In this document: piece after piece, positions 3,445-36,507 of the stretch | Layout of the letters: every line of letters begins with the position of its first letter | Position numbering within the stretch: position 1 is the first letter of the stretch | NCBI GenBank assembly: GCA_016204995.1 | Contig: JACQJR010000001.1 | Span: 435,132 to 471,665 of the forward strand | Source of the DNA: Candidatus Microgenomates bacterium | GTDB lineage: Bacteria; Patescibacteriota; Microgenomatia; UBA8517; JACQJR01 | Length of the DNA stretch: 36,534 bases | Reading direction: 5' to 3' | Notes under the pieces: model-generated | The model's database searches: none | The model's input: the letters and a program-made list of their open reading frames with translations, nothing else | What the model was told of the DNA's origin: nothing | Translations under genes and position numbers: made by a program

Positions 3445-4400
3445 CTCATCCTCTGCAGTCGCCAGCATGGGGTGAATTTCGGACTAAAACCGGTGTCAAA
3501 GTGGTGCGAGGTGATAACTTTCAAATTACCATTCATAAACTTCCTTTTACCTCCTGGACGATTGGCTATTTTCCTAAAGGGCCTCTACCGACTACTGAAA
3601 TGATTAGCCAACTTAAAAAAGTCGGCCGCGATAATCACTGCATTTTTATCCAGCTGGAGCCTAATGTTGAGAAAATTTCCAATTTCCAATTTCCAATTTC
3701 CAATTTGGGATTACGGCCTTCTACTAAACCTTTATTTTATCAGCATAGTTTTGTTATTGATTTAACCAAAAGTGAAGAAGAATTATTAGCCGCCATGCAT
3801 CCTAAAACCCGTTATAACATCCGCCTGGCTCAAAAACATGGCGTTAAGGTAGAAGAAAAAAGCGATGATAAGTCTTTTGCTACCTACCTCAAACTTTACT
3901 TTGAAACGGCTCAAAGACAAAAATATTTTGGCCACAGCGAAAGATTTCATAGGCTGATGTGGGAAACATTACAACCAACCGGAATTGCTCATTTACTCAT
4001 TGCTTACTACACTCCACCTTCTTCACCCATAATACATAATACAGATCCCCTAGCCCTGACAGCTTGGATGCTTTTTCATTACGGCGATACTCTTTATTAC
4101 GTTTACGGCGGTTCCAGTTCCGAGTATAAAAACGTCATGGCCAGTAATTTAGTAGCCTGGGAAGCCATCAAACTGGGTAAAAAATTAGGAGCAAAAAAAT
4201 TTGACTTGTGGGGCTCTTTAGGTCCAGATGCCGATCCCAAAAATCCCTGGTACGGCTTTCATAAATTTAAACAAGGTTATGGCGGAAAACTGGTAGAATA
4301 TATCGGCAGCTACGATTTAGTTTTAAATCCTTTTCTCTATTCTCTCTTTCATTTAATTGACAAATCCCGCTGGCTGATATTAAAAATAAAAACCTTTTAG
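3414..4400 (+). CDS. FemAB-family peptidoglycan interpeptide-bridge aminoacyltransferase-like protein
   Basis: HPLQSPAWGEFR, TRYNIRLAQKHGV, YYVYGGSS, NLVAWEAIKLGKKLGAKKFDLWG and WYGFHKFKQGYGG resemble the FemAB / lipid II glycyltransferase family. Overlaps the pcrA 3' end by 31 nt. Contains the translated heptamer array at 3674-3708. Confidence 0.8.
   Translation: MAGTTQKIRLTHPLQSPAWGEFRTKTGVKVVRGDNFQITIHKLPFTSWTIGYFPKGPLPTTEMISQLKKVGRDNHCIFIQLEPNVEKISNFQFPISNLGLRPSTKPLFYQHSFVIDLTKSEEELLAAMHPKTRYNIRLAQKHGVKVEEKSDDKSFATYLKLYFETAQRQKYFGHSERFHRLMWETLQPTGIAHLLIAYYTPPSSPIIHNTDPLALTAWMLFHYGDTLYYVYGGSSSEYKNVMASNLVAWEAIKLGKKLGAKKFDLWGSLGPDADPKNPWYGFHKFKQGYGGKLVEYIGSYDLVLNPFLYSLFHLIDKSRWLILKIKTF
3674..3708. 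repeat. Tandem heptamer array (AATTTCC x4 plus degenerate AATTTGG) inside the FemAB-family CDS
   Basis: Read directly: aatttcc aatttcc aatttcc aatttcc aatttgg. Translated as ISNFQFPISNLG. The same 30-nt core occurs at 28634-28663. Confidence 0.95.
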
Positions 4401-7934: not shown

Positions 7935-7942
7935 AACACTGT

Positions 7943-8959
7943 TTAACTAGTTAGTTGCTTAGCTTCTTGACTGGCATCTTCTCCCAAATTGCCCGTTGAG
8001 GTAATTTTCTGTCCTAATTGCGAAAAGCTGGTGGTTACTTGAGACATCATATTATAAGCGTTATTAAGATGTTTGCCTAAAACCCCTAAATTATCATCTA
8101 CTTTGACATAATCTTTTTGGATCGCGCGGATGGCTTGTAAAATTTCCCGGGCTTTCTGTTCAATTTTTTGTCCCTCAAAACTCATTAAAATGGCCCGTAA
8201 ATAGGCATAAAAAGTGGTGGGAGAAACAGGCAACACCCGCATTTGATGAGAATAATCCAATAAATTCTGATCACCATTAATCACTTCGTAATAAACCGCC
8301 TCTGATGGAATATACATCAAAGCATAATCAATAGTCCCTTCATCAGTTAGAATGTATTTTTTGGCAATATCATCAATGTGTTTTTTAATATCGCGACTAA
8401 ATTCTTTTTGCAGATTCTTCTTTTCGCTTTCTGTAACAGCCGCTGCCATTTTGCGATAATTTTCCATGGGGAATTTGGAGTCTACCGGAATAATACCAGC
8501 CGCCGTTTTAATGGCCGCATCAACTATCGTGCCATTTTTAAAACCATATTGGATATGAAAGGACTGTTTGGGCAGCATTTGACCTAATAATTCTTTTAAA
8601 ACCTGCTCGCCGATATTACCTCGCAACTTGGGACTTCTTAAAAATTCCTGTAAATCTTTCATGGAACGGCCGATTTCACTCATCTCGCCGACGTTTTTCT
8701 GCAAGCTGGCAATAACCCTGGCCGCCGAATCAAGCCTTTCATTTAGAGATTGAGTGTTTTTGGCTAAACTATCTAATAAAACTTTTCTATCTTCTTTGGA
8801 GCCGCTTTGCAGCATTTTAATAATTTCCAATAATTCTTCCGAGGGCTTTTGATTTTGGGCCAGTTGGGAGAATTTACGGCTAAGAAGAATAAATAAAAAG
8901 CCTAGGCCGGCCAGCATTGCAATGACGACGAGCAGAGCGTCTTGAGTCATAAGTGCCAT
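7943..8959 (-). CDS. rmuC: DNA recombination protein RmuC
   Basis: An N-terminal TM helix and coiled coil are followed by RmuC-domain strings IPVDSKFPMENY, ALMYIPSEAVYYE and VLPVSPTTFYAYLRAI. Confidence 0.85.
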   Translation of the reverse strand: MALMTQDALLVVIAMLAGLGFLFILLSRKFSQLAQNQKPSEELLEIIKMLQSGSKEDRKVLLDSLAKNTQSLNERLDSAARVIASLQKNVGEMSEIGRSMKDLQEFLRSPKLRGNIGEQVLKELLGQMLPKQSFHIQYGFKNGTIVDAAIKTAAGIIPVDSKFPMENYRKMAAAVTESEKKNLQKEFSRDIKKHIDDIAKKYILTDEGTIDYALMYIPSEAVYYEVINGDQNLLDYSHQMRVLPVSPTTFYAYLRAILMSFEGQKIEQKAREILQAIRAIQKDYVKVDDNLGVLGKHLNNAYNMMSQVTTSFSQLGQKITSTGNLGEDASQEAKQLTS

Positions 8960-9681: not shown

Positions 9682-11106
9682 ATGGATAAAAAGTTTTATA
9701 TTACCACGGCTATTCCTTATGTGAATGACGCCCCCCATATTGGCCATGCCTTGGAGTTTGTCCAAGCAGATACAGTGGCCCGTTATCATCGGCTTTTAGG
9801 AGAAGATGTTACTCTTCTATCCGGCGCTGATGAAAATGCTTTAAAAAATGTGCGGGCGGCAGAGCAAGCGGGAATTGAAACACAAACTTTTGTAGATAAA
9901 AATGCCAAGTTATTTCAAAACCTAGCTGAAAAATTAGGGGTTCAATTTGATATTTTCCAAAAAGGTAGTGACCAAGAACATCACTATCCCTCTAGTCAAA
10001 AACTATGGCAGTTATGCCAAGAAAATGGCGATATTTATAAAAAAAGCTACACAGGCCTTTATTGCGTGGGCTGTGAGGCATTTTATACCCCAGAGGAATT
10101 AAATGATAAAGGCGAGTGCTTTGAGCATCCTGGTAAAAAATTAGAAGAACTAAAAGAAGAAAATTATTTCTTTAAGTTATCTAAATACCAAGATCAATTA
10201 ATTAATCTAATTGAAAGTGATCAATACAAAATCATCCCAGAATTTCGTAAAAAGGAAATTTTATCCTTTCTTAAAAGCGGCCTGCAAGATATTAGTATTT
10301 CCCGCACCAACGAACGGGCTAAAAACTGGGGCGTGCCAGTTCCCAATGATCCAAATCAAAGAATTTATGTTTGGTTTGATGCTTTAAATATTTATCAAAG
10401 CGGCATTGGTTTTGGCTGGGATGAAGAAAAATATAAAAAGTGGTGGCCAGCGGATTTACATGTTATCGGCAAGGGTATTATTCGTTTCCATGCTGTCTAT
10501 TGGCCAGCTTTTTTATTATCGGCTAAACTTGCTTTGCCTAAAAAATTATTTGTCCATGAATATTTAACTGTTGATGGCCAAAAGATGTCCAAAACCATCG
10601 GCAACGTTTTTGATCCTCTGCCTTTGATAGAAAAATATGGAGCCGACAGCGTTCGCTATTATCTATTAGCTCGCGTTTCACCTTTTGCTGACGGTAATTT
10701 TTCCGCAGAGAAATTTAAGGAGGTTTATAACGCCGATTTAGCTAACGGATTAGGTAACTTAGTCTCTCGCGTGGCTAAGCTTTGCGAGCAACATAATATT
10801 AAAGCAAGCACACCATCAAATGTCTGGTGTACGGATTTGGAAAAATTTATGGGGGAATTTAAGTTTAATGAAGCCATCGGCGTAATTTGGCAACTAATTC
10901 ACGAGGCAGATAAAAAAATTAATGAAGATAAACCCTGGGAATTATCAACTGAACAAGTCAAACCCATCCTGGAGGATTTGGTAAATATAATTCAAGCTAT
11001 TGCCTATAACTTAAAACCATTCTTGCCAGAGACAGCAGAAAAGATAACCAAACAATTTTCCGGTCAAATTAAATCCGGCCCGCCCCTATTTCCTCGCCTC
11101 CAGTAA
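9682..11106 (+). CDS. metG: Methionyl-tRNA synthetase (short form, no C-terminal tRNA-binding appendix)
   Basis: IPYVNDAPHIGHAL (HIGH motif), CVGCEAF knuckle and QKMSKTIGN (KMSKS motif). Confidence 0.95.
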   Translation: MDKKFYITTAIPYVNDAPHIGHALEFVQADTVARYHRLLGEDVTLLSGADENALKNVRAAEQAGIETQTFVDKNAKLFQNLAEKLGVQFDIFQKGSDQEHHYPSSQKLWQLCQENGDIYKKSYTGLYCVGCEAFYTPEELNDKGECFEHPGKKLEELKEENYFFKLSKYQDQLINLIESDQYKIIPEFRKKEILSFLKSGLQDISISRTNERAKNWGVPVPNDPNQRIYVWFDALNIYQSGIGFGWDEEKYKKWWPADLHVIGKGIIRFHAVYWPAFLLSAKLALPKKLFVHEYLTVDGQKMSKTIGNVFDPLPLIEKYGADSVRYYLLARVSPFADGNFSAEKFKEVYNADLANGLGNLVSRVAKLCEQHNIKASTPSNVWCTDLEKFMGEFKFNEAIGVIWQLIHEADKKINEDKPWELSTEQVKPILEDLVNIIQAIAYNLKPFLPETAEKITKQFSGQIKSGPPLFPRLQ

Positions 11107-17671: not shown

Positions 17672-17901
17672 CACAGGACAAAAGTGGGTTCAATCGCGCC
17701 CCTCGTGACTGGCGAAATACTTTGAGCCACCAAGCGAGGTAAGCGATATCGGTTTTCATAAACTGATATTCCCGCCTGCGCCTCTGGGAAAAGATGTCTG
17801 TCTAGCGGAGCTAGATCCTGCTCCGCAGGACAAAACAGCTATGCGCGGGTTTCTGGCGAAGCCAGATCTCGCTACGCGAGACGATTCCCGCTCGCGCCCC
17901 A
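17672..17901 (+). other. GC-rich structured non-coding island (candidate ncRNA, tRNA-like remnant or REP-like element)
   Basis: Two 30-nt double-hairpin units (17801-17830 and 17852-17881) differ only by compensatory pair changes and loop changes. A closing helix GCGCGGG/CTCGCGC is followed by C-CCA. CAGGACAAAA occurs as a direct repeat at 17674 and 17826. There is no credible ORF. Confidence 0.45.
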
Positions 17902-24037: not shown

Positions 24038-24952
24038 TCAGAAAGTCAAGTATTCTTTATTAGTTGTGGATTCATTTTTTAAAGCATATTTTTTAACTCT
24101 CTTTTCAAATTCTTTTAATACCATTTGTCCCCAGTCAATCGGATGGAAGAAAGCCTGGCCGGATTCCACTAACTCGCGAGTCTGGTGTTTTTTCATATGC
24201 CATTTTTGGAAACGAAAAGCCAAGGGTTCTAAAAAACGCAGTAAGACACCTAGGCTCTTTGGCTCTTGGGCTGTTAGGCTATCAGCATTTAGCCCATGAG
24301 CCCAATTACCTAATGTCCTAATAACCCACCAATTTTTCACCCATTCATTAGCTGTTAAGAACTTTTCAAAAGTGGAATTTTTATCCACCAATGGTACTAC
24401 CTGCAACACCTCATGGGCTGTATATAAATTGTGGATATCTGGTGGAACTAGCAAATTATCTGCATCTAGCCAGAGATTTAAACAAAGCTGATTAGCTCCA
24501 TCTTTGGAGCCAGCAGTTCTTAAAGGTAAAAAGGCCAGTTTTAATAGTAAACTAGCCAGCAAGCGAGTTGTCCACAAAGTACCTTTTTTGGTGATAATTA
24601 TTAAATCTATATCTGCCGACGAATCGGCATTATTCATCGCCAGACTACCGCTAATACCCACAAAACAAATTGTGGATAACCTGGAGAGAACTTGAGCGGC
24701 TTGGCGAGCAATGACCAGTTTAGAAAAAGATAGTTTATTTCTGTGGGTGCGGGCTAAAATAATCCCTGCCCTGCCTTTAAGGTGATACCACTGCCCAGTT
24801 TTTTCTACCAACACCTTTTCTGCTCCTACTGATACCTTCCACTTATTTAACTCATCATGAGTCAGTGGATATTCAAAGATATCGTGATAACAAAGAGATA
24901 AAAATTGTCCCTGGCTTACCCACACAGGTTTGGTAGTTTTAACGTGTACCAT
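24038..24952 (-). CDS. Pol-beta-superfamily nucleotidyltransferase-domain protein (hypothetical)
   Basis: FVGISGSLAMNNADSSADIDLIIIT fits the G-S-x(n)-D-x-D minimal nucleotidyltransferase signature. Confidence 0.55.
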   Translation of the reverse strand: MVHVKTTKPVWVSQGQFLSLCYHDIFEYPLTHDELNKWKVSVGAEKVLVEKTGQWYHLKGRAGIILARTHRNKLSFSKLVIARQAAQVLSRLSTICFVGISGSLAMNNADSSADIDLIIITKKGTLWTTRLLASLLLKLAFLPLRTAGSKDGANQLCLNLWLDADNLLVPPDIHNLYTAHEVLQVVPLVDKNSTFEKFLTANEWVKNWWVIRTLGNWAHGLNADSLTAQEPKSLGVLLRFLEPLAFRFQKWHMKKHQTRELVESGQAFFHPIDWGQMVLKEFEKRVKKYALKNESTTNKEYLTF

Positions 24953-26405
24953 ATGAGGATAAAACTTGACTCACGCCTTGGGCCACTGTTTGCATCGCCT
25001 CTTTGACGTCACCACCCTGCAATACTTTATTAATCGCATCTTCAAAATATTTTGAAATACGAGAATTAATCCCCGTTGGACCATCATTAGTGCGGCTGGC
25101 CAAATACCAGGATTTGGCAAAAGGCGCTTCTTTAATAAAGGCCCCCACTGTCGGATCAGAGGATAACAAATCAGCCATATCTGGCCGCGGGTAAGGCTCG
25201 CCAAATAGTCGCATTTTGGCTTGCAAGCTATACAGCTTTTCCAAAAACTCTTTATCGCTTAAAAACTTCAAGAACTTATAAGACTCACTGACATTTTTAC
25301 TTCTGGCCCAGACTCCTTCCACCCAATAACTGGCCCAAGTCAGATCTTTTTGATCTGGTGTGGCTTTGGCCACCTGTGGCACCGGCACTATTTGAAAATG
25401 CAAATTGGGATTTTGGGCTTTGATATTAAAGGCTTCCCAGGAAGGACCAAAATACATCGCCACTTTCCCTGAAGCAAAAGTTACGGTAGAAGGCGGTAAA
25501 GTCTCGTCCCATACTTTATCAGTAGTTGCAAAAATTGTATAGAAAGTTAAAGAATCTTCAGCATTTTTACTAATAGGACTGGCCATATCCGCCCCGTTTT
25601 GCAGCATCATTAACGACAAAATATCCTGCCAGTGATCTACATTGGCGGCATTGCCCAAAGCTACGCCGGCCCGAGTAATATTCTGTTGCTCATCTCTGAT
25701 GGTTAAAGCCAGCGCCTCTGACCGCAGCTCATCCCAGGTGATAGGCGGAGTTAGACCAGCCTGTTGAAAAATATCAGTATTAATGTATAACCCCAAACCA
25801 TCAATCATTAAAGGAATTCCTAAAATCTGATTGTTGCGAGTTAGGTCGGCTACTGCCACTGGATAAAATCGGTTTTGGAAATCAGATAAAGACATCACTC
25901 CGGGAGGAACCACTGCTAGTTCGCTTGCCATCATCGGCACCCAGCTATTATGAAAACGGAAAATATCCGGTCCTTCACCGCGGGCCAAAGCTGAAGTTAA
26001 TCTCTCCCGATAATCCTGTTGAGATTGTTTAATATAGCTAATTTTGATGTTAGGGTGGGCTTTTTGGTATTCCTCAATTAAAGGAGTAACCAGACTATCA
26101 TCCTCCCATAATCCCCACCAGGTTAGGTTAACTGGTGGTACTGGTTTAGCCGAAGGAAAGAATTTGGTAAAAGCCACAAATCCTCCCCCTAAAACAGCCA
26201 ATACTGCTATGACTATTAAAATCATTTTTAAGGGCAGTCTGGATAAAAATGACTTTTTCTCTCCATCTAAAGGATGGCTAAAATCTGGTGGTTGAGTTGA
26301 AGTTGGCCCTGCAGGTGATACGGGTGGGACTGCCGGCGTTGGTGAAGCCGGTGGGATCGGAGGGAAAGAGCTGTCTTGAACTGGAAATTGGTCAGGGAAA
26401 GCCAT
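24939..26405 (-). CDS. Extracellular solute-binding protein (ABC-transporter family 1, sugar-type) with a Pro-rich N-terminus and membrane anchor
   Basis: LTWWGLWEDDSLVTPLIEEYQKAHPNIKISY, and further on IPLMIDGLGLYIN and WDELR. No permease or ATPase gene is adjacent. Confidence 0.75.
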   Translation of the reverse strand: MAFPDQFPVQDSSFPPIPPASPTPAVPPVSPAGPTSTQPPDFSHPLDGEKKSFLSRLPLKMILIVIAVLAVLGGGFVAFTKFFPSAKPVPPVNLTWWGLWEDDSLVTPLIEEYQKAHPNIKISYIKQSQQDYRERLTSALARGEGPDIFRFHNSWVPMMASELAVVPPGVMSLSDFQNRFYPVAVADLTRNNQILGIPLMIDGLGLYINTDIFQQAGLTPPITWDELRSEALALTIRDEQQNITRAGVALGNAANVDHWQDILSLMMLQNGADMASPISKNAEDSLTFYTIFATTDKVWDETLPPSTVTFASGKVAMYFGPSWEAFNIKAQNPNLHFQIVPVPQVAKATPDQKDLTWASYWVEGVWARSKNVSESYKFLKFLSDKEFLEKLYSLQAKMRLFGEPYPRPDMADLLSSDPTVGAFIKEAPFAKSWYLASRTNDGPTGINSRISKYFEDAINKVLQGGDVKEAMQTVAQGVSQVLSSYGTR

Positions 26406-26443
26406 AGTCTTCTCTTCATGATATCATATGGAAAGGAAACTCA

Positions 26444-26477
26444 CCTGCCCGCAATGCTAGCGTAAGCGTGGCAGGCG
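26444..26477. repeat. 34-bp GC-rich palindromic insert flanked by a 9-bp direct repeat (MITE/REP-like candidate)
   Basis: GGAAACTCA (26435-26443) | CCTGCCCGCAATGCTAGCGTAAGCGTGGCAGGCG | GGAAACTCA (26478-26486). The termini CCTGCC/GGCAGG pair perfectly. Confidence 0.6.
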
Positions 26478-26487
26478 GGAAACTCAA

Positions 26488-28239
26488 ATGTCAAAACCTA
26501 AAAAGATCAAGAAAATATTTAACTTTCTCAACAGGCAAAACCCACTGGCGGTTCTGGCGGTATTATTTCTATTGGAAGCCGTTTTTGTCGCGACTAGCTA
26601 CCATCTAATTTTTTGGAATAGAATTTATCCCAATATTATGGTAGCAAATATTAATCTTACTGGGAAAACAGAATTAGAAGCCCAAAAATTATTAGCTAGT
26701 ATCTCCCCTTCCCCAACCATCACTTTAATAACACCAGACAAACAATTTGTCCTTAAAAGTCGCGATATTGATCTGCAATACGACACCAACCAGACTGTCA
26801 GACAGGCTTTTTTAATCGGCAGAAGCGAGTCAGCCGTGTCTAATTTCACCGTTAAATGGCAAGCATTGCAGCAACCAGTCCAGCTTCCCTTTGCTTATTC
26901 CTATAATCAAGAAAGGCTGACGCAATTTTTCCAAAAAGTGAGTAACGAAATTGATATCCCCGTCATTCAAACTAGTATAGAAATTCAAAAAGGCCAGGTG
27001 ATTGTTAAATCTGGCCAGGCCGGATTGGAAGTTGACAAAGAGATTTTGGCGCAAAATGTCAAAAATGCCCTTGGCGCCGGTCAGCATAAAATCGCCATTC
27101 CTGTCAAAACCAACGCCGTTTTTTCCGCTTCTCAAATTGAAGAACTGCGTACCCGCACCCAAAATTTGGTGGGAGCAAGTCTGGCTTTCACCCAGGAAGA
27201 AAACAATGTTATTTTGTCTGACAGTGATCTGGTGAAATTTTTAGCGCCTGATCAGACTTTTAACCAGAACAAAATTAAGGAGCAGGTAGAAAAAATCGCT
27301 GCTCAATTTTACAGGCCAGTCCAAGAACCCACCTTTCGTTTTGAAAATGGTAAAGTGACAGAATTTAAGCCTGCCAAAGACGGCATAGAAGTTGACAAGG
27401 AAAAACTAATCAAGGATATTGCGACAACTATTGACACATTGACCCCGGGCCAAAAAGTTCCAATGGATATTCCGGTTACTAAAACCAAATCCAAATTAAC
27501 TACCAACCAAGTCAATAATATCGGACTTAACGAATTGATCGGCCGGGGCTGGTCTCAATTCAAAGGCTCTGCTCCGGCCCGGGTGCATAATATCGCGCTA
27601 GCTGCTTCCAAGCTTAATGGTATCTTAATCAAACCGGGAGAAGTTTTTTCTTTTAATCAGGCCCTCGGCGATGTGTCGGTTTTTACCGGCTTCCAACAAG
27701 CTTATATTATCAAAAACGGCCGGACCATCTTGGGAGACGGCGGCGGCGTTTGCCAAGTTTCTTCTACTCTTTTCCGGGCGGCTTTGGCGGCCGGCTTACC
27801 CATTATAGAACGACGGGCTCATTCTTTCCGGGTCAGCTATTATGAACAAAACTCTACGCCCGGTTTTGACGCCACAGTCTTTGATCCTTCTCCTGATTTT
27901 AAAATTAAAAACGATACCCCGGCTTATATCCTTTTGCAAGCCACAGTTGATACTAAAAATGCCAGTCTCGTCTTTGAAATATATGGCACCAGCGATGGCC
28001 GGGTCGCCACTACCAGCAAACCCAGAGTGTGGGATATTAAACCGCCACCTCCTGATTTATACCAGGATGACCCCACCTTACCCACCGGCACTGTTAAACA
28101 AGTAGAGCACCGAGTTAACGGTGCAAAGGTGGCTTTTGACTATAAAGTAATACGAGGAGGTGGGGTTTTACAAGACAAAACTTTTTATTCCACCTACCAA
28201 CCCTGGCAAGCAGTGTATTTGCGGGGCACCGCGCAGTAA
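26488..28239 (+). CDS. VanW-family protein (YoaR-like; N-terminal anchor, peptidoglycan-binding-type region and VanW domain)
   Basis: GGGVCQVSSTLFRAALAAGLPIIERRAHSFRVSYY is the VanW core. There is an N-terminal TM helix. The start ATG lies inside a CAAATGTCAAA repeat unit. Confidence 0.85.
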   Translation: MSKPKKIKKIFNFLNRQNPLAVLAVLFLLEAVFVATSYHLIFWNRIYPNIMVANINLTGKTELEAQKLLASISPSPTITLITPDKQFVLKSRDIDLQYDTNQTVRQAFLIGRSESAVSNFTVKWQALQQPVQLPFAYSYNQERLTQFFQKVSNEIDIPVIQTSIEIQKGQVIVKSGQAGLEVDKEILAQNVKNALGAGQHKIAIPVKTNAVFSASQIEELRTRTQNLVGASLAFTQEENNVILSDSDLVKFLAPDQTFNQNKIKEQVEKIAAQFYRPVQEPTFRFENGKVTEFKPAKDGIEVDKEKLIKDIATTIDTLTPGQKVPMDIPVTKTKSKLTTNQVNNIGLNELIGRGWSQFKGSAPARVHNIALAASKLNGILIKPGEVFSFNQALGDVSVFTGFQQAYIIKNGRTILGDGGGVCQVSSTLFRAALAAGLPIIERRAHSFRVSYYEQNSTPGFDATVFDPSPDFKIKNDTPAYILLQATVDTKNASLVFEIYGTSDGRVATTSKPRVWDIKPPPPDLYQDDPTLPTGTVKQVEHRVNGAKVAFDYKVIRGGGVLQDKTFYSTYQPWQAVYLRGTAQ

Positions 28240-28242
28240 ATT

Positions 28243-29325
28243 ATGACTATCCTAGCTATTGAAACCAGTTGTGACGAGACCGCGGCTTCGGTGGTGGAAG
28301 ACGGCCGGAAAGTGTTATCTCATGTTTTGGCCAGTTCGGCCGATATGCATGCTAAAACCGGTGGCATTATTCCGGAAATGGCGGCTCGCGAACAACTAAA
28401 ATCAATTTTACCAGTTATTGAAGAGGCTTTAAAAAAGGCTTTTCCTTCTCAAGCTTCTAATCTCCAATATCTAAGCTCTAACCTTGATGTCCTCGCTGTC
28501 ACTGCCGGCCCAGGACTTATCGGCTCATTATTAGTCGGAGTTGAGACTGCTAAAACCCTCGCCTGGTTATGGAATAAACCCTTAATACCAGTCAATCATC
28601 TTGTAGGCCATATATACGCGAATTTCATTCGCGAATTTCCAATTTCCAATTTCCAATTTCCAAATGAAGAACCAAAATTCCCAGCGCTGGCTCTAGTTGT
28701 CTCTGGCGGACATACTGATTTAGTTTTGATGGAAAACCACCAAAAAATTACCTGGATCGGCGGGACTCGCGATGATGCGGCTGGTGAAGCTTTTGATAAG
28801 ACGGCCAGACTTTTGGGACTTCCCTATCCGGGTGGGCCAGCCATTGCGGCTGAAGCCGCCAAATTTGAAGCACAAAATCCGAAATCTGAAAAACTACAAA
28901 TGTTTCCTAGACCTTTGATTAATGAGAACTATTTTGATTGGAGTTTTTCCGGATTGAAAACTGCCGTAGCCCGGGAAGTTAGCAAAAATAAAAAGTTAAC
29001 TGGTGAAGATTTGCAAAAATTTTCTGCCGAAATTCAACAAGCCATTGTTGACTCACTGGTGATCAAAACTATGAGGGCTGTCAAAAAGTTTAAACCCAAA
29101 TCATTGCTGTTGGGTGGAGGTGTGGCAGCAAATTCTCGCTTGCGCGAAGAATTTAATTCTAAAATCCAAGATCTAACATCTAAGATCTCTTTACATGTTC
29201 CTCCTCCTAAATTCTGCACCGATAACGCCAGTATGATTGGCGCTGCCGCCTTTTATAATTACCAACCAGTTAACTGGAGAAAAATTCAAACCCTTCCCGA
29301 ATTAACAATTACTGGAGAGATATAA
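28243..29325 (+). CDS. tsaD: tRNA N6-adenosine threonylcarbamoyltransferase TsaD (Kae1/YgjD family)
   Basis: ILAIETSCDETAASVV, HLVGHIYANF, LVVSGGHTDL, DDAAGEAFDKTARLLGLPYPGGP and GGGVAANSRLR. Confidence 0.95.
   Translation: MTILAIETSCDETAASVVEDGRKVLSHVLASSADMHAKTGGIIPEMAAREQLKSILPVIEEALKKAFPSQASNLQYLSSNLDVLAVTAGPGLIGSLLVGVETAKTLAWLWNKPLIPVNHLVGHIYANFIREFPISNFQFPNEEPKFPALALVVSGGHTDLVLMENHQKITWIGGTRDDAAGEAFDKTARLLGLPYPGGPAIAAEAAKFEAQNPKSEKLQMFPRPLINENYFDWSFSGLKTAVAREVSKNKKLTGEDLQKFSAEIQQAIVDSLVIKTMRAVKKFKPKSLLLGGGVAANSRLREEFNSKIQDLTSKISLHVPPPKFCTDNASMIGAAAFYNYQPVNWRKIQTLPELTITGEI
28634..28663. repeat. Tandem heptamer array (AATTTCC x4) inside tsaD
   Basis: aatttcc aatttcc aatttcc aatttcc aa. 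Translated as EFPISNFQFP. The 30-nt core is identical to that at 3674-3703. Confidence 0.95.
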
Positions 29326-29989: not shown

Positions 29990-32041
29990 ATGGAGAAAAC
30001 TTACCAATCAAGCCTGCACGAAGAAAAAATCTATTCGCTGTGGGAAACGGGAAACTACTTTAGGCCTATAGAAAAATCTACCGAACCTAAAAAAACATTT
30101 GTAATGATGATGCCCCCACCGAATGTTACTGGAGCACTCCATATCGGACACGCTCTTACTGCCGCAACTGAAGACATTTTAGTCCGTTTCCATCGCATGC
30201 TTGGAGAGACAACTTTATGGTTACCGGGTGTGGACCATGCCGGTATTGCCACCCAAAATGTGGTAGAGCGCGCCCTAGCCAAAGATGGTAAAAATAGAAT
30301 TGATTTAGGTCGGGAAAAATTCGTAGAAGAAGTTTGGCAATGGGTAGAAAAATATGGCCACACCATTGATGATCAACATAAAAAATTAGGAGTTAGCGCC
30401 GACTGGTCACGCCGCCGTTTTACCATGGACGAGGACTATCAACAAGCAGTTCAAATCGCTTTTAATACTTTAAAAGAAAAGGGTCTGATTTATCAGGGAG
30501 AATATATTGTTAACTGGTGTCCTCGTTGTGCCAGCGCCATTTCTGATTTAGAAAATATTTACGAGGAACAAAACGGCAAATTATATTTTTTAGATTACGG
30601 CCTTATTACTATTGCTACTACCCGGCCGGAGACAATTTTTGCCGATAGTGCTATTGCCGTTAATCCCAAAGACAGTCGCTATCAAAAGCTGGTTGGCAAG
30701 TTCGCCGCGATCCCTTTAATAAACAAAGAAATTCCCATTATCTCCGACATGGCAGTTGACCAAAATTTTGGTACTGGCGCTTTAAAAGTCACCCCAGCCC
30801 ATGACCAAACTGATTTTGAAATTGGCCGTCGTCATAATTTACCGCGCCCATCTGTAATTGATAAAAACGGTAAAATGGCAAGTTCTAATTTAGTACCCCA
30901 AAAATATTGGGGCATGGAGGTGCAAGTTGCCCGAGACGGGGTGGCCAAAGACTTGCAAAATTCTGGCCTGTTGAAAAAAGAAGAAAGCCATCAAAATAAT
31001 GTCGGCCATTGCCAACGTTGCGACACTATTACCCAACCATTACTTTCTCTCCAATGGTTTGTTAAAACCACGGCCATGGCCCGAGCTGCCATAGAGGCAG
31101 TTAAAAAAGGCGAGATTAAAATTATCCCCAAAAGGTTTGAAAAAGTTTACTTCCAGTGGCTTGAAAATATTCATGACTGGTGCATTTCCCGCCAAATCTG
31201 GTGGGGCCACTCTATTCCAGACAGCAATGACGTCTTAGACACTTGGTTCTCTTCTTCCCTCTGGCCCTTTGCCACTTTAGGCTGGCCGAAACAGACAGCA
31301 AATTTGCAGAGATTTTTTCCTACCACAGTTTTAGAAACCGGTTATGATATTCTCTTTTTCTGGGTGGCCAAGATGATTATGATGAGTACTTCCTTGACCG
31401 GTAAACCACCTTTTGAAACGGTTTATCTGCATGGATTGGTCCGTGATATTCAGGGACGGAAGATGAGTAAAACTCTCGGTAACGTGATTGATCCCCTGGA
31501 ATATATTGGCAAATATGGCACGGATAGCTTACGGATGGCCTTAGTGGTGGGCACAACGGCCGGCAATGACAGTAAAATTTCCGAGGAAAAAGTTGTCGGT
31601 TACCGCAATTTCACCAACAAGGTTTGGAACATAGCCAGATTCATTTTGTCATATGAATCTGGAACTCAAATGTCAAATGTCAAAACTCAAAACGAAGATG
31701 ATAAGTGGATTAGGGATGAATTAGTCAAAACTATTAAATCTGTTACTCGCCATCTTCACAACTTCCGCCTCTCCCCGGCCGGCGAAGAAATTTATGATTT
31801 CATCTGGAAAAAGTTGGCTGATATTTATTTAGAAAAAACTAAAAGCCGGCGCCAAGAAGCTCAACCTACTTTACTTTATGTTCTAGATCGCAGCCTACGT
31901 CTTCTTCATCCTTTTATGCCATTTGTTACCGAAGTTATCTGGCAAACTGCCCGCGAGACCAAACGACTGTCTGCGCAGGCAGGCTTGACGCCCGGCACTT
32001 TCCAAGAGGAAGCCCTGATTACTGCCCAATGGCCAAGATAG
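29990..32041 (+). CDS. valS: Valyl-tRNA synthetase, compact form (683 aa)
   Basis: PPPNVTGALHIGHAL (HIGH motif), TTRPETIFADSAIAVNP and KVTPAHDQTDFEIG (CP1 editing domain), DVLDTWFSS and RKMSKTLGNVIDP (KMSKS motif). Confidence 0.93.
   Translation: MEKTYQSSLHEEKIYSLWETGNYFRPIEKSTEPKKTFVMMMPPPNVTGALHIGHALTAATEDILVRFHRMLGETTLWLPGVDHAGIATQNVVERALAKDGKNRIDLGREKFVEEVWQWVEKYGHTIDDQHKKLGVSADWSRRRFTMDEDYQQAVQIAFNTLKEKGLIYQGEYIVNWCPRCASAISDLENIYEEQNGKLYFLDYGLITIATTRPETIFADSAIAVNPKDSRYQKLVGKFAAIPLINKEIPIISDMAVDQNFGTGALKVTPAHDQTDFEIGRRHNLPRPSVIDKNGKMASSNLVPQKYWGMEVQVARDGVAKDLQNSGLLKKEESHQNNVGHCQRCDTITQPLLSLQWFVKTTAMARAAIEAVKKGEIKIIPKRFEKVYFQWLENIHDWCISRQIWWGHSIPDSNDVLDTWFSSSLWPFATLGWPKQTANLQRFFPTTVLETGYDILFFWVAKMIMMSTSLTGKPPFETVYLHGLVRDIQGRKMSKTLGNVIDPLEYIGKYGTDSLRMALVVGTTAGNDSKISEEKVVGYRNFTNKVWNIARFILSYESGTQMSNVKTQNEDDKWIRDELVKTIKSVTRHLHNFRLSPAGEEIYDFIWKKLADIYLEKTKSRRQEAQPTLLYVLDRSLRLLHPFMPFVTEVIWQTARETKRLSAQAGLTPGTFQEEALITAQWPR
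31661..31695. repeat. Heptamer array (GGAACTC AAATGTC AAATGTC AAAACTC AAAACGA) inside valS
   Basis: Read directly. Translated as GTQMSNVKTQNE. It shares the string ACTCAAATGTCAAA with 26482-26495 and, on the opposite strand, the repeat at 33625-33692. Confidence 0.9.
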
Positions 32042-32376
32042 AAAAAGTTCAGAGTTCGGAGTTAGGAGTTCAGAGAATAAATCTGTTGTGGTGGACCGTG
32101 AGTTTTATAGTGGTGCTTATCTCGCTGGCCAACCTTTCTATCTGGGCCAGAAATGAGTTAGCTAAAAAGGCCAGAATTCCCATAGAAGTAGAAATTAGTA
32201 AGTGGGAACAAGTTGTCCAAAAAACCCCCACTTACCGCGACAGTTATTTAAAACTGGCTATTCTTTATTGGCAATTACAGGAAGATCAGAAATCTCAAGT
32301 GGCTCTAGCTATTGCTGAAAATCTGGACCCTAATTACGAAGAAACTGGAGAAATTAAGAGGCTTTTAGGCTACTAG
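32029..32376 (+). CDS. Small membrane-anchored TPR-like protein (hypothetical)
   Basis: TM helix (LLWWTVSFIVVLISLANLSIW) followed by a TPR-like segment YRDSYLKLAILYWQLQEDQKSQVALAIAENLDPNY. The first ~16 codons are repeat-derived, so the start is uncertain. Confidence 0.5.
   Translation: MAKIEKVQSSELGVQRINLLWWTVSFIVVLISLANLSIWARNELAKKARIPIEVEISKWEQVVQKTPTYRDSYLKLAILYWQLQEDQKSQVALAIAENLDPNYEETGEIKRLLGY
32047..32074. repeat. Heptamer array GTTCAGA GTTCGGA GTTAGGA GTTCAGA
   Basis: Read directly. Begins 6 nt after the valS stop codon. Translated as VQSSELGVQR in the next ORF. Confidence 0.9.
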
Positions 32377-33068
32377 GCTTTTTTCTTCTCTTCCTCTATG
32401 GTTGGTTTTTCTTCCGTTGCCGGAGTTTCTCCACCTTCGGCCGGTACTTCGCCCTCTACTGCTTCACCTTCAGCCGGGGCTGGCGGAGCCACTTCTTCCT
32501 CTTTGGCTGGCGGTTCAATCTTGGCCACAATTTGTTCTCCCTCTGTTACTACCGTTACTTTATCCTTCGCGACCATCAAATCGCTTACATAAATCGCCTC
32601 ATCTACGTTTTCCAGTTTACTAACATCTACCAATAATTTTTCTGGCAAATCGGTCGGCAAAGCCTCCACTTCCACTTCATTAGTTTGCTGCACGAGAATT
32701 CCTATGCCGGATTTTTCAGCGGGGGCTTCGCCAGTTAACTCCACAGGAACCGTGGCGGTAATTTTTTCTGTTAAATCAACCTGGCGGAAATCAGCATGAA
32801 TGGGCAAATCAGTAACTGGGTGCAGTTGAACATTAACTATTAAAACTGGTTTGGTTTCTTCATCAACTTGTAAATCTATCAAACCCGTCTCCCCTGCTTT
32901 TTCATAAACTGCCTGGAATTCTTTTAAGGGTAATTCTAAAGCTTGAGAAGTTATTTTTTTGCCATAAACATTAGCCGGCATAATACCGTCACGACGAAGA
33001 GCGCGCACTTTTCTACCTTCTAGGGTTCGTTTTTTGGCTGCTAATTTTACTCTGTCTGTACTTGCCAT
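32373..33068 (-). CDS. rplY: 50S ribosomal protein L25 / general stress protein Ctc form
   Basis: KLAAKKRTLEGRKVRALRRDGIMPANVYGK and a two-domain length, with an acidic/Pro-rich C-terminal tail. Confidence 0.9.
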   Translation of the reverse strand: MASTDRVKLAAKKRTLEGRKVRALRRDGIMPANVYGKKITSQALELPLKEFQAVYEKAGETGLIDLQVDEETKPVLIVNVQLHPVTDLPIHADFRQVDLTEKITATVPVELTGEAPAEKSGIGILVQQTNEVEVEALPTDLPEKLLVDVSKLENVDEAIYVSDLMVAKDKVTVVTEGEQIVAKIEPPAKEEEVAPPAPAEGEAVEGEVPAEGGETPATEEKPTIEEEKKKA

Positions 33069-35830
33069 ATTGCTGAAAACTGCACATCACTGCGCAATAG
33101 GGTATTGTACCCCACAGCATTACTCTCCGTCAAGGAAGAAGGGGGAAACAAGGTAACTCTGAAATTGTCGGGATAGCGAATCTTCAAGGTGACGGGATCC
33201 TCCACCACCCCATATTGTTTTTGCCATAAGAAGACTAAACTACCCCGATCAGTCATTTGGAGAGAGTTTTGCCAAGATATCAACAGTTGCCTAGTTTCCC
33301 CTGCCGGCACGAGAATTAACATTCCGGCCACATTCTTGCCATGCTCCTGGCTGAAATCAGGCGCTAAATTGACACTCTGACCGTTGGCGGGATTGACTAA
33401 ACTGGCCGATATGACAGCAGACGAAAGTGGACTATACAGCCGCAGATAGTTTTTGTAACCCAAATCAATTTTGCCTTTAGGGTTTTGGTTAACGTAGGAG
33501 ATGGTCAAATTATGCAGCAACTTATCCGAATTTAGCGACAATTCCAGTTGAGCGCTACGGGATAAACCAAAATTCGCTTTATTCACTCCCACATTCGCTT
33601 CTGCGATAAAAAGATAGTCCTCCTGACATTTGACATTTGACATTTGACCTGCCTGCCTTGCCTGCGCAAGCGGGGCAGGCAGGCATTTGACATCCCTTAG
33701 TCCCCCATCCCAACCTAATTCAGCAAGAATCGCTTGTTGCTTACGGTTATTAAGATAAATAGATAGATGGCGGCCAGCCAGATTATCCATGATTACCTTC
33801 CCTATGGAAACTATCTTCGTTTGGCTCGTCTTTAATCTGTCTATTAAAATGCGGGTTGTCGCAGTTAAAAAATCACGCTTGCGGGTGGATCCCGGAAAAA
33901 ATTCTTCCTGGGCAAAAAATTGGGTTTTTTCATAAAAATTACTTTCATTAATTTTAGTATTGAAATCAGCTATATCTAATGACCCAACAATTCCTATTAG
34001 TTTTTTAACTGTTTCTAGATCCAAAGCCACTACCCCATCCACCTGTTGGTTTAATTCCTTATCCAAAAACCAGGCGGCCCGTTGGCCAGTCGTGGGAAAA
34101 TCAGGATCCCAATTAGAATCACGCAAATACCAGTTGGCTTCTCCCAGGTGAGTTTTTAAGGCGGGCGGCGGCTCCACATGTCCTGAAAGATGACCATCGG
34201 CTTCGTAAACATCTTGAATATCAATATTAATTAACTTACCATGATCTATGGTCAATAAACCAATTGATCCAATAAAACCGCCCGTAGGCCGCAACTCCAT
34301 ATTATTTTGCAAAAGCAATAAATATTGCCTTTTACCTTTAAAGCCTAACAAATCAGGCGTTTCTTTGACCAGGGTGGTTAGTTTGGTGATAGTGGTAAAA
34401 TCCACCGGGAAGTTCTGTCGCAAAAAGTCATTCTTCTCGGCGGCCGAGAGACTTAAATCGCGGCTTAATGAATCTACTTCTAGTACAAAACTATTAACAA
34501 TCTGCTCTTCTGTTCCACTATCGCCGCCGATCACACCAGTAAAAATTTTCTGTCCCAGACCGGCAATCTTAGCTCCCCTGACTGCTATATCTGCCACCTC
34601 CTCTAAAGAACGAACCTGATTTCTCGCCGGCAGAAGGCTTTCCCCCATTCCCGGAATTATCATTAAATTACCCAAACTACTATCTGCCACTACCAAGGAT
34701 TGCTTGCTAAAATTCGCCCAGCGGCTAGCCTCATTAAAATTCCCGGCGGCAAAAGACTTCTTGGCCATCGCGAGCATCACTCCCCCACCGGTAAAAGATA
34801 AAAATGGTAAGCCGATAAACCAGAAGAATATTAATATCAACCCCAGCCAGATAGCCCATTTCCAGCCTTTAGGGATTGGCTTGTGGCTTGCCTTGCCGGC
34901 AGACAAGTCTTTAGTCTTTGGTCGTTGGCTTTTAGTTTCTCTAATTTTGGGAGTTATTTTGGAAACATTTTCGCGAAAGTATTGCAAGGTTTGACTAATG
35001 CCTAAAACCAGAGGGGTATGAACCGGCAATAATTCACCACCCCAAGACTCATCCGCGTCTGAAAAAGAATGGCTACCAATCCCCTGCTGGCTCACACTTC
35101 TAACCGTGTCGTAAAAAACAGAAATGCTTATTTCGCGCACAGCAAAGGAGAAGGTTTTACCACGACTGTTAGGCGAAAACATGGCCAGTATTATGCCACT
35201 TACTGCATCATCTAAAAATAAAGGCAAAACCTTTTGGTGTCCTGCTGCATAAGCAAGAGGTGAAGATAAAAGTGTCTGGTGAATAATGTTTCCCAGGGGA
35301 TCATCCAAAAACAAAGGCATGGTTGGACCGTATAAGTTTCCTAATTCCACCAACCGGACATCTACCTGTCTATTCTTGCCATATTCTAAAACAAAAGTTT
35401 TATAGAATTGGTTAACTTCGCGAAGCTTCTCCGATTTATTTTGCTCACTACTGGCAAATAAAAATTTAGCGTGGGCCTGGTCAGCAATTTCCAAAAGGCG
35501 CTCAATTACTTTATGTTGTTCTTGCAGCAGCAAAAAATATAAATCTGCTGTTTCCGGTCCCACTCTTTCCAAATAAAAAATATAATTCGGTAGGGGTAGG
35601 TTAGTCGGAAAGTTTTGGGCGAGATCCTGCTCTAGAATATTTAGATTTTTATCTTGCAGGGGTAATAAATTTTCTTTAATCCCCACTTGCCAATTATCAA
35701 TGGCAATAATTTTTGCTCCTTTTTTTAATAAATTTCGGCAAAGATCTGCCCCCAAAAAAGAGGCAGCATTAACTACCCAAATTACTGGATGATGATGCTC
35801 GCTAATTAAACTGCCCAAACCTTTGGCCAT
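33047..35830 (-). CDS. Fusion protein: degenerate NAD-epimerase/dehydratase-like Rossmann domain, TM helix and extracytoplasmic DUF4012 domain
   Basis: The N-terminal VIWVVNAASFLGADLCRNLLKKGAKIIAIDN corresponds to the VTGGAGFIGSHL region, and LGNLYGP is also present. TM helix WAIWLGLILIFFWFIGLPFLSF. LLLLQNNMELRPTGGFIGSIGLL...DVYEADG is DUF4012-like. Confidence 0.75.
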   Translation of the reverse strand: MAKGLGSLISEHHHPVIWVVNAASFLGADLCRNLLKKGAKIIAIDNWQVGIKENLLPLQDKNLNILEQDLAQNFPTNLPLPNYIFYLERVGPETADLYFLLLQEQHKVIERLLEIADQAHAKFLFASSEQNKSEKLREVNQFYKTFVLEYGKNRQVDVRLVELGNLYGPTMPLFLDDPLGNIIHQTLLSSPLAYAAGHQKVLPLFLDDAVSGIILAMFSPNSRGKTFSFAVREISISVFYDTVRSVSQQGIGSHSFSDADESWGGELLPVHTPLVLGISQTLQYFRENVSKITPKIRETKSQRPKTKDLSAGKASHKPIPKGWKWAIWLGLILIFFWFIGLPFLSFTGGGVMLAMAKKSFAAGNFNEASRWANFSKQSLVVADSSLGNLMIIPGMGESLLPARNQVRSLEEVADIAVRGAKIAGLGQKIFTGVIGGDSGTEEQIVNSFVLEVDSLSRDLSLSAAEKNDFLRQNFPVDFTTITKLTTLVKETPDLLGFKGKRQYLLLLQNNMELRPTGGFIGSIGLLTIDHGKLINIDIQDVYEADGHLSGHVEPPPALKTHLGEANWYLRDSNWDPDFPTTGQRAAWFLDKELNQQVDGVVALDLETVKKLIGIVGSLDIADFNTKINESNFYEKTQFFAQEEFFPGSTRKRDFLTATTRILIDRLKTSQTKIVSIGKVIMDNLAGRHLSIYLNNRKQQAILAELGWDGGLRDVKCLPAPLAQARQAGQMSNVKCQEDYLFIAEANVGVNKANFGLSRSAQLELSLNSDKLLHNLTISYVNQNPKGKIDLGYKNYLRLYSPLSSAVISASLVNPANGQSVNLAPDFSQEHGKNVAGMLILVPAGETRQLLISWQNSLQMTDRGSLVFLWQKQYGVVEDPVTLKIRYPDNFRVTLFPPSSLTESNAVGYNTLLRSDVQFSAIWQVQTE
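33625..33692. repeat. GACATTT x3 heptamers plus a 36-bp GC-rich palindrome flanked by CATTTGA(C) direct repeats, read through in frame
   Basis: gacattt gacattt gacattt ga | CCTGCCTGCC ttgcctgcgcaagcgg GGCAGGCAGG | catttgaca. The outer stem is a 10-bp perfect match. The minus-strand translation is DVKC-LPAPLAQARQAG-QMSNVKCQ. Confidence 0.9.
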
Positions 35831-36443: not shown

Positions 36444-36507
36444 CAATCCTAACAATAGAATTGTTAGGATTGCAATTTCTAATTTCAAATTTCTAATTTC
36501 TAATAAA
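36444..36507. repeat. Perfect 13-bp inverted repeat followed by an AATTTCT-type heptamer array
   Basis: CAATCCTAACAAT-AGA-ATTGTTAGGATTG (36444-36472), then caatttc taatttc aaatttc taatttc taataaa (36473-36507). Confidence 0.9.

Follow-up and report, generated by a model that had tools for sequence, protein, structure and literature searches.

A dispersed family of 36–39-nt hairpin elements that probably inserts without target-site duplication in Patescibacteria-like genomes

The closest described relatives, in behavior, of the element reported here include the Rickettsia palindromic elements (RPEs), reportedly the subject of work by Ogata and colleagues in 2000, and the small dispersed repeats (SDRs) of Nostoc, which Elhai and colleagues are said to have found in 2008 to be often embedded in tandem heptamer repeats. 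To our knowledge, no transposase is known for RPEs or for the present family, and we know of no mobilising enzyme or mechanism established for SDRs. Short GC-rich hairpins are also known from mitochondria, with yeast GC clusters, fungal double-hairpin elements, and placozoan and sponge hairpins as examples. Here, we analyzed a 36,534-nt stretch of Candidatus Microgenomates DNA (henceforth the window) in which two GC-rich palindromes, one in the leader of a vanW gene (copy 1) and one inside a DUF4012 gene (copy 2), very probably belong to a dispersed family of insertion-type hairpin elements that produces no target-site duplication (TSD) and resides in Patescibacteria (candidate phyla radiation, CPR)-like genomes. 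[quoted passage not shown] RPEs are discussed in PMC1166351 and PMC2229807; SDRs, 21–27 nt in length, are reported only from Nostocaceae (PMC5861425), and SDR4–6 of Nostoc punctiforme (Elhai et al. 2008, Genome Res 18:1484) are cited in PMC5861425 and PMC3116915. REPs are extragenic, carry GTAG/CGTC tags, commonly form inverted doublets and flank a gene for a REP-associated tyrosine transposase (RAYT) (PMC3116915, PMC3733652), and GC-rich hairpins in AT-rich mitochondrial genomes are treated in PMC7813641.

Compared with these systems, the present family shares with RPEs the in-frame insertion into tolerant open reading frames (ORFs) and the additional presence in intergenic DNA; RPEs, however, are ~100–150 bp long and confined to Rickettsia, whereas the present elements measure 36–39 nt, occur in Patescibacteria-like and a few GC-rich contigs, lack sequence similarity to RPEs and are far more conserved across distant hosts. 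Likeness to SDRs is found in the very small size of the dispersed hairpins, in compensatory changes, in presence/absence evidence of mobility and in host genomes rich in heptamer arrays, while embedding in heptamer repeats here concerns a minority only (7 of 117 copies with exact flanks vs 0.2 expected; here and throughout, counts of 121, 117, 115, 75, 70 and 41 family copies are among the matches listed from our metagenome scan). By description, the element is set apart from SDRs by its 36–39 nt, its CPR hosts and its frequent in-frame position in genes. REPs are likewise imperfect palindromes of 20–40 nt, richer in GC than their genome, and cause no target duplication (PMC3116915, PMC3733652), and the conserved, unpaired 5′ CCTG of the present family resembles their GTAG tag; unlike REPs, the family is ~35% intragenic, carries CCTG as its tag, occurs mostly as singlets and has no RAYT visible in the window or at 115 loci. 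Mitochondrial GC hairpins, for which gene conversion is suspected as the spreading route, are also short and GC-rich palindromes, which multiply in compact, AT-rich genomes and enter protein genes in frame, but their hosts are organelles rather than free bacteria, and they form unrelated families with much less conservation across hosts. Finally, elements derived from insertion sequences (IS) of the IS200/IS605 type similarly lack TSDs and long terminal inverted repeats (TIRs) and have hairpins recognised on single-stranded DNA (ssDNA), but they are larger, with distinct left and right hairpins and a fixed tetra- or pentanucleotide 5′ of the insertion, whereas no fixed target is seen here.

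The DUF4012 gene provides the clearest comparison of occupied and unoccupied sites. The earlier note had placed a second palindrome at 33648–33683; we confirm this and find, additionally, that it lies in frame inside a coding region, where it interrupts a perfect TGACATT array and is translated as VKC-LPAPLAQARQAG-QMSNVKC. Taking out these 36 nt gives an unbroken array and the peptide VKCQMSNVKC, to be compared with VKCQISNVKC at locus L106. Protein alignment of 50 DUF4012 homologues showed a short C-X3-7-C loop in 48, with 12–13 extra residues in this Cys loop only in the window protein (P0121) and in P0122 (proteins P0126, P0145 and P0130 have smaller, different extras); orthologues of the window protein comprise P0122, P0124, P0125 and P0272. 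P0122 is 44% identical to the window protein and hosts a 39-nt copy at the same codon, while P0125, 89% identical to P0122, is without insert, as are P0123 and P0124. On the DNA level, the site reads GTC AAA TG[36 nt]T CAA ATG TCA AAT GTC AAA TGT in the window and GTC AAC TG[39 nt]T CAA CTG CCA ACT GCC AAC TGC at L103, both filled, and GTC AAA TGT CAA ATT TCA AAT GTC AAA TGC at L106 and GTC AAC TGT CAA CTG TCA GTT GTC AGT TGT at L105, both empty. The alignment thus contains clean 36- and 39-nt blocks, and, because filled and empty alleles alike have four heptamers, nothing was duplicated on insertion. Filled and empty orthologous sites show that insertion adds exactly the element and no TSD.

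The same codon was hit in two lineages. The L103 insert, CCTGCCCGCAGTAGCTACGCAACAAGCGTTGCAGGCGGG, matches the family hidden Markov model (HMM) with E = 3e-11 and is far closer to copy 1 than to copy 2 at the orthologous site; furthermore, the family match lies on the non-coding strand of the gene for copy 2 and on the coding strand for the L103 copy. Because lengths, subtypes and apparently orientations differ, and because one of the two has an empty sister lineage, these alleles point to two independent insertions at one DUF4012 codon, and the LPA...QAG motif shared by the two proteins is therefore a DNA-level artefact of the palindrome arms. As a separate observation, L107 (~7910–7995; P0272, GCA_964525065.1), P0145, P0126 and P0130 have different extras at this Cys loop, examples being the 24-nt TCCCCATTCGGCAAGCTCAGGGCAAGC and the peptide CLPAVAGNQGEAEKGEC; these extras may be decayed older insertions, with the loop as a hot spot.

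To describe the family, metagenome contigs were scanned with CCTGCCNGCN{10,15}AAGCGNNGCAGGCNGG, a pattern designed from the L103 copy, which yielded at least 120 loci (121 matches listed). The 36-nt consensus, CCTGCCCGCA(T/A)TGCT(A/T)CGCAAAGCG(T/A)TGCAGGCGGG, is near-invariant, also at the positions that the search pattern left free, and one identical 36-mer, CCTGCCCGCATTGCTACGCAAAGCGTTGCAGGCGGG, accounts for 22 of the 70 AT-rich 36-nt copies. By length, there are 75 matches of 36 nt, 28 of 39 nt, 13 of 37 nt and 5 of 38 nt. At most loci the element is present once, while at a few (L113, L123, L193) copies are adjacent or nested, and nearly all matches lie in contigs of 30–50% GC; one host protein comes from Candidatus Levybacteria. 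The family HMM recovered copies 1 and 2 and nothing else in the window, as well as ~14 additional copies in ~700 kb of element-bearing metagenome loci, some with the arms kept and another core. Copy 1 matches over its full length (E = 3.9e-8) and is identical at 34 of 36 positions to metagenome copies of the AGCGCAAGCG subtype, e.g. at L159; copy 2 is a weak, plus-strand match (E = 0.023) that shares 28 of 36 positions (78%) with copy 1. The scenario under which the earlier note would have given up its idea, namely two copies only and no empty sites, is contradicted by this distribution and by the empty sites present at DUF4012 (L105, L106, P0125) and vanW (L104, L231, L233). No curated covariance model of Rfam matches the element, and cultured plasmids and phages gave no match to the consensus 36-mer. 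Searchable literature, queried by sequence, by encoded peptides and for CPR palindromic or heptamer repeats, held no description of the family, although this search was incomplete; we accordingly regard the family as an apparently undescribed variant among tiny palindromic repeats with less confidence than we attach to our other conclusions.

Copy 1 had been delimited in the earlier note as a 34-bp palindrome between exact 9-bp direct repeats that looked like a TSD. Both palindrome and repeat are real, GGAAACTCA standing at 26435–26443 and again at 26478–26486 (spacing 43), but the 34 nt lying between the two repeats (CCTGCCCGCAATGCTAGCGTAAGCGTGGCAGGCG) are not the whole element, which by family consensus comprises 36 nt, 26444–26479, with the 3′ end GCAGGCGGG. 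Since the final GG of the 9-mer belongs to the element, the true flanking repeat is AAACTCA, and the extra GG is copy 1's own 3′ end matching a GG upstream. With boundaries set in this way by the family consensus, flanking direct repeats across 117 copies measured 0 nt in 58 copies, 1 nt in 40, 2 nt in 7, 3 nt in 5, 7 nt in 6 (control expectation 0.2) and 14 nt in 1. Flanks of 0–1 nt in 98 of the 117 copies are at odds with the fixed-length TSD of a MITE. Exact 7- or 14-nt flanks (~6%) are ~35-fold enriched and are confined to copies within heptamer arrays, both window copies among them. Heptamer arrays are a favored but minority landing context, and the apparent direct repeats at both window copies exist because such arrays are enriched landing sites. 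A targeting of heptamer arrays, as suggested in the earlier note, consequently holds as an over-representation and fails as a general rule.

Period-7 repeats are themselves abundant in these genomes. CAAATGTC occurs 7 times in the window vs 1.3 expected; perfect tandem tracts of period 7 number seven vs 0–3 for each of the periods 4–12, and six of the seven are inside ORFs. The unit AATTTCC is found in two unrelated window genes, the FemAB-like gene and tsaD, and ~700 kb of element-bearing metagenome loci contain 103 period-7 tracts vs 3–22 for periods 5, 6 and 8–11. The valS tract at 31661–31686, to which the earlier note likened the site restored by removing the insert, is an uninterrupted array of the same heptamer type without an element; we considered this tract as an insertion in its own right and rejected the idea, as alignment with Thermus thermophilus ValRS shows one extra residue only.

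This abundance lends itself to another explanation, in which homologous recombination or gene conversion between heptamer arrays (or uptake of foreign DNA) placed the palindromes, with the repeats as homology arms and no dedicated enzyme. For copies embedded in arrays specifically, this explanation is a live one: the arrays around both window copies, L103 and L172 are built of related units (AAACTCA, AATGTCA, GTCAAMT), one DUF4012 array was hit twice, exact flanks are enriched, and heptamer arrays abound in these genomes. As an account of the family, however, it is unlikely, given that ~90% of copies have neither repeat context nor common flanks, that copies 1 and 2 differ in their insertion register within the heptamer, and that the two are only 78% identical.

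Conservation and folding of the element bear on a further alternative, a host-serving cis element. Copy 1 is predicted to be only a moderate hairpin (−16.2 kcal/mol, z = −2.2 for the 34-nt hairpin as single-stranded RNA; −8.9 kcal/mol, z = −1.3 for the 36-mer as ssDNA), whereas stronger folds are computed for copy 2 (RNA −28 kcal/mol, z = −3.8) and for the family consensus as DNA (−12.0 kcal/mol, z = −3.3). In the best DNA fold of the consensus, the 5′ CCTG is unpaired and CCCGC/GCGGG, TGC/GCA and ACGC/GCGT pair around an AAA loop. The arms CCTGCCCGCA and TGCAGGCGGG are inverted repeats of each other, and the element ends CCTG and CGGG are invariant in the alignment. Over 33 distinct 36-mers, pairing is satisfied in 91% of cells vs 33–49% with slid partners, and pair 16–26 covaries (AU 19, UA 8, GC 1); columns fixed by the search pattern carry no structural information. 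In the 39-mers, an alternative inner hairpin, mutually exclusive with the first, again shows compensatory changes (GATGC/GCATC, GAGGC/GCCTC, GACGC/GCGTC).

Copy 1 itself stands between divergent genes for a solute-binding protein (SBP) and VanW. The vanW ORF encodes 583 aa, and its ATG at 26488, singled out in the earlier note, aligns with the start Met of five homologues; the best homologues are 45–57% identical and come from sources named Candidatus Microgenomates, Blackburnbacteria, Woesebacteria or Patescibacteria. A cyanobacterial origin of the window, suggested by heptamer repeats reminiscent of Nostoc STRR and SDR, was rejected on account of these homologues. SBP/vanW synteny is kept in L104, L231 and L233 (VanW 53–57% identical), and the palindrome is absent from the same spacer in these three loci. 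A palindromic box, T(C/G)ATGATATCATAT, is conserved in all four genomes (the window; L104 3376–3389; L231 ~9978–9991; L233), and its distance to the ATG is 8–9 nt in the three relatives vs 58 nt in the window, which is accounted for by 8 nt + AAACTCA + the 36-nt element + AAACTCA. The box reads TGnTATCAT on either strand and could thus be an extended −10 promoter working in both directions, or else an operator; a simple promoter scan did not call it. If it is such a promoter, copy 1 would be transcribed in the vanW leader, and a 36-nt hairpin downstream of the TGnTATCAT box may change vanW expression; copy 1 is not translated, because it contains an in-frame TAG. L172, considered as an orthologue of this leader, was rejected as an unrelated locus with a similar heptamer context. 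Strain-level comparison yielded no empty site, as every contig encoding an identical VanW or DUF4012 protein carries the element.

A role as cis element, of the kind proposed for REPs, would make the palindrome a protein-binding site or an RNA hairpin, serving as mRNA stabiliser, as attenuator or as a supercoiling or nucleoid site, with copy 1 regulating vanW or the SBP gene. The very strong sequence conservation, including a conserved mismatch and wobble, the compensatory changes, and the position of copy 1 between a promoter-like box and the vanW ATG fit such a role, which is also compatible with mobility. We nevertheless consider it rather unlikely as the explanation: orthologous genes work without the element, one third of the copies lie in frame in unrelated housekeeping proteins in both orientations, the family keeps no regular position relative to genes, and Rfam offers no match.

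The earlier note had proposed a tiny non-autonomous element of MITE type, of which the mobility withstood analysis, with at least 120 loci and filled and empty orthologous sites, and the classification as a MITE with TSDs did not. A classical MITE would be a TIR element, of cut-and-paste or copy-paste type, moved by a DDE transposase with an 8–9-bp staggered cut, leaving GGAAACTCA and CATTTGAC as TSDs. Exact 9- and 8-bp repeats at the window copies and a 9-bp repeat at L103, at a spacing of 43–46 nt, together with arms that are inverted repeats, gave this idea its appeal. It is now very improbable, since neither the family-wide flanks nor the equal heptamer numbers of filled and empty DUF4012 alleles leave room for a 9-bp or 8-bp duplication, and the terminal GG of the supposed TSD is part of the conserved element end. 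Furthermore, adding 43 or 46 nt would throw a gene out of frame, as 36 or 39 nt does not, an IS element having such ends was not encountered, and 36–39 nt is below the usual ~50–500 bp of MITEs. The inconsistency of flanking duplications at other copies, which the earlier note had named as grounds for doubt, thus removes the TSD and leaves mobility in place.

Mobility without TSD also accommodates the copies inside genes. A copy was counted as coding if a read-through ORF of ≥120 aa spanned it with ≥30 aa on either side, and 41 of 115 copies in AT-rich loci (~35%) qualified. Lengths of 36 or 39 nt make up 39 of these 41 vs 59 of the 75 copies elsewhere, and frame use is biased: plus orientation in phase 0 (peptide PARIATQSVAGG) accounts for 20 copies, plus orientation in phase 2 (LPALLRKALQAG) for 8 and minus orientation in phase 0 (PACNALRSNAGR) for 6, while frames rich in Cys/Arg or containing a stop are seldom used. 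Among the hosts, Pfam confirms UvrB, RadA, ribosomal protein S1, Fpg, ribonucleotide reductase (RNR) and a protein resembling methionine synthase, which has B12- and pterin-binding domains. Because nearly all coding copies are 36 or 39 nt long and their frame use is biased, they are most likely translated as a loop of 12–13 residues (PARIATQSVAGG, LPALLRKALQAG or PACNALRSNAGR) and not removed from RNA. One RadA gene, at L194 (P0294), carries a diverged copy, PPASPCEALRAG, along with a KLKTQNS repeat that is heptamer-like and one more insert of low complexity; in a protein from the 90% cluster of P0294, 95% identical over the aligned region, the element is kept and a separate 6-residue stretch is absent.

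An intron-like element, excised from RNA and therefore harmless in genes, is hardly credible in view of this preference for multiples of three and avoidance of unfavorable frames, even though essential genes are entered and two copies lie in tRNA-like sequences. These two hosts are 5′ tRNA fragments interrupted at the D-loop position (L146 5550–5640, L189 3385–3440), directly upstream of an intact tRNA of the same type and with more element fragments nearby, and no intact tRNA is interrupted; this arrangement suggests that tRNA loci have been rearranged in association with the element. We rejected an insertion into functional tRNA genes, as ARAGORN found no junction-spanning tRNA after removal of the element. 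Separately, one element-bearing contig has a group I intron (Rfam RF00028, 91.5 bits) within a tRNA cluster (L211 2164–2389).

The idea that the palindromes arose by chance or were driven by codons (LPA...QAG), or that they are artefacts of assembly or adapters, has virtually no standing, for although copy 2 is a weak HMM match (E = 0.02) whose symmetry partly coincides with the codons CTGCCTGCC and GGCAGGCAG, the pattern CCTGCC-N(14-34)-GGCAGG has 3 window matches (2 of them overlapping in copy 2) vs 0.02 expected from shuffles, an orthologue has a strong family member at the same codon, the window sequence is identical in three independent Logan assemblies, and family copies are contig-internal in JGI, ENA, NCBI and Logan data, with natural variation and compensatory changes.

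Several observations weigh against a mobile hairpin family of CPR-like genomes and have to be set beside the evidence above. No transposase domain was found by Pfam in the 30 window ORFs scanned, in agreement with the absence of a transposase asserted in the earlier note; no gene family recurs beside the copies other than housekeeping families (1481 ORFs at 115 loci, all-against-all clustering); and the GTAG or CGTC tag of REPs was not found at the element ends. The insertion sites have no conserved target motif of 4–5 nt, with A at position −1 in 51% and other positions near background. At vanW, both flanking heptamers look added relative to the relatives, which a simple model without TSD does not predict. 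The search pattern fixed 21 of 36 positions and thereby imposed much of the apparent conservation, the 36.5-kb window contains only two copies, and a few true members in contigs of 61–63% GC mean that the family is not strictly CPR. Finally, a genome-collection scan with CCTGCCN{12,16}GCGNAAGCGNGGCAGG returned 98 single, scattered hits in unrelated GC-rich genomes; it gave no Patescibacteria match, its pattern being too specific to copies 1 and 2 (GGCAGG vs the family's TGCAGG). GC-rich contigs with genuine members are L228, L229 and L230 (IMG/VR, 63% GC, classified as viral), L120 and L163, and, given members in viral-classified contigs, the family might travel on phages.

For a mobile family without TSD, the element would be selfish non-coding DNA, and an enzyme encoded at another genomic site would move it in trans; ORFs between the paired copies of L138 and L129 are not transposase-like. 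The likeliest route, which we put forward tentatively, would be an ssDNA hairpin intermediate handled by an HUH enzyme of the RAYT or IS200/IS605 type, because the family lacks a TSD, has a conserved and asymmetric hairpin whose 5′ CCTG is unpaired in the best DNA fold, and uses both orientations. A broader and doubtful proposal is that the hairpin element and the abundant heptamer arrays are two products of one DNA-handling system, operating in Patescibacteria and in heterocystous cyanobacteria. Such a system would move a 36-nt hairpin without a dedicated linked transposase, nearly unchanged across distant lineages.

Table 1 Coordinates of the element copies, their flanks and host genes, and heptamer tracts in the window
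Feature	Position	Strand	Description
Solute-binding protein gene (SBP_bac_1)	24939–26405	−	Pfam assignment; divergent from vanW
Conserved palindromic box	26416–26429	.	TCATGATATCATAT; between the divergent SBP and vanW genes
Left flanking heptamer of copy 1	26437–26443	+	AAACTCA; with preceding GG, the 9-bp repeat at 26435–26443
Element copy 1	26444–26479	+	GC-rich, imperfect hairpin of 36 nt, CCTGCCCGCAATGCTAGCGTAAGCGTGGCAGGCGGG; in the vanW 5′ leader / divergent intergenic region
Right flanking heptamer of copy 1	26480–26486	+	AAACTCA; then AATGTCA, holding the vanW ATG at 26488
vanW / PG_binding_4 gene	26488–28239	+	Pfam PF04294, PF12229; downstream of copy 1
Uninterrupted array of like heptamers in valS	31661–31686	+	GGAACTCAAATGTCAAATGTCAAAAC; no element
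Epimerase-like / DUF4012 gene	33047–35830	−	927 aa; Pfam PF13196, PF01370; host of copy 2
Heptamer array, one side of copy 2	33624–33647	−	Coding-strand CAAATGT units; encodes QMSNVKC
Element copy 2	33648–33683	+	36-nt diverged member CCTGCCTGCCTTGCCTGCGCAAGCGGGGCAGGCAGG; in frame in the minus-strand DUF4012 gene
Heptamer array continued, other side of copy 2	33684–33693	−	Coding strand ..GATGTCAAATG
Perfect heptamer tandem tracts	3674–3706, 4028–4043, 7390–7406, 28634–28663, 31666–31684, 33624–33648, 36488–36504

The remaining window genes are of housekeeping type and include UvrD-like helicases, RmuC, MetRS, GroEL, TsaD, Sua5, ValRS, L25 and RNase H. Downstream of tRNA-Cys, positions 17680–17900 are GC-rich, with short palindromes (GCGGAGC..GCTCCGC, TCTGGCGAAGCCAGA, TCTCGCTACGCGAGA, CGCGAGA..CGCTCGCG), an element half-site, CCCGCCTGC, at 17771–17779 and no Rfam match; this region may be an unannotated RNA or consist of decayed elements. 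ValRS (29990–32041) has 683 aa and ends where the T. thermophilus enzyme continues into its C-terminal domain, and an ORF of 115 aa without Pfam hit (32029–32376) overlaps the ValRS end by 13 nt.

Mobile DNA under ~50 nt is barely understood, and the present family is a second, independent and much more widespread case beside SDRs, one in which orthologous sites are cleanly filled or empty, a single codon was hit repeatedly, and the association with heptamers is SDR-like. Phylogenetic profiling over thousands of CPR genomes could name the mobilising enzyme. Since it lengthens core proteins, among them UvrB, RadA, S1, Fpg, RNR and the DUF4012 protein, by 12–13 residues, the element can mislead alignments, gene calls and phylogenies of Patescibacteria, and false conserved motifs result, such as LPA...QAG in two orthologues hit independently. 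If one DNA-handling system were indeed responsible for both hairpins and heptamer arrays, the element would rank with the smallest mobile DNAs known and would recurrently supply essential proteins of minimal genomes with new loops of 12 residues.

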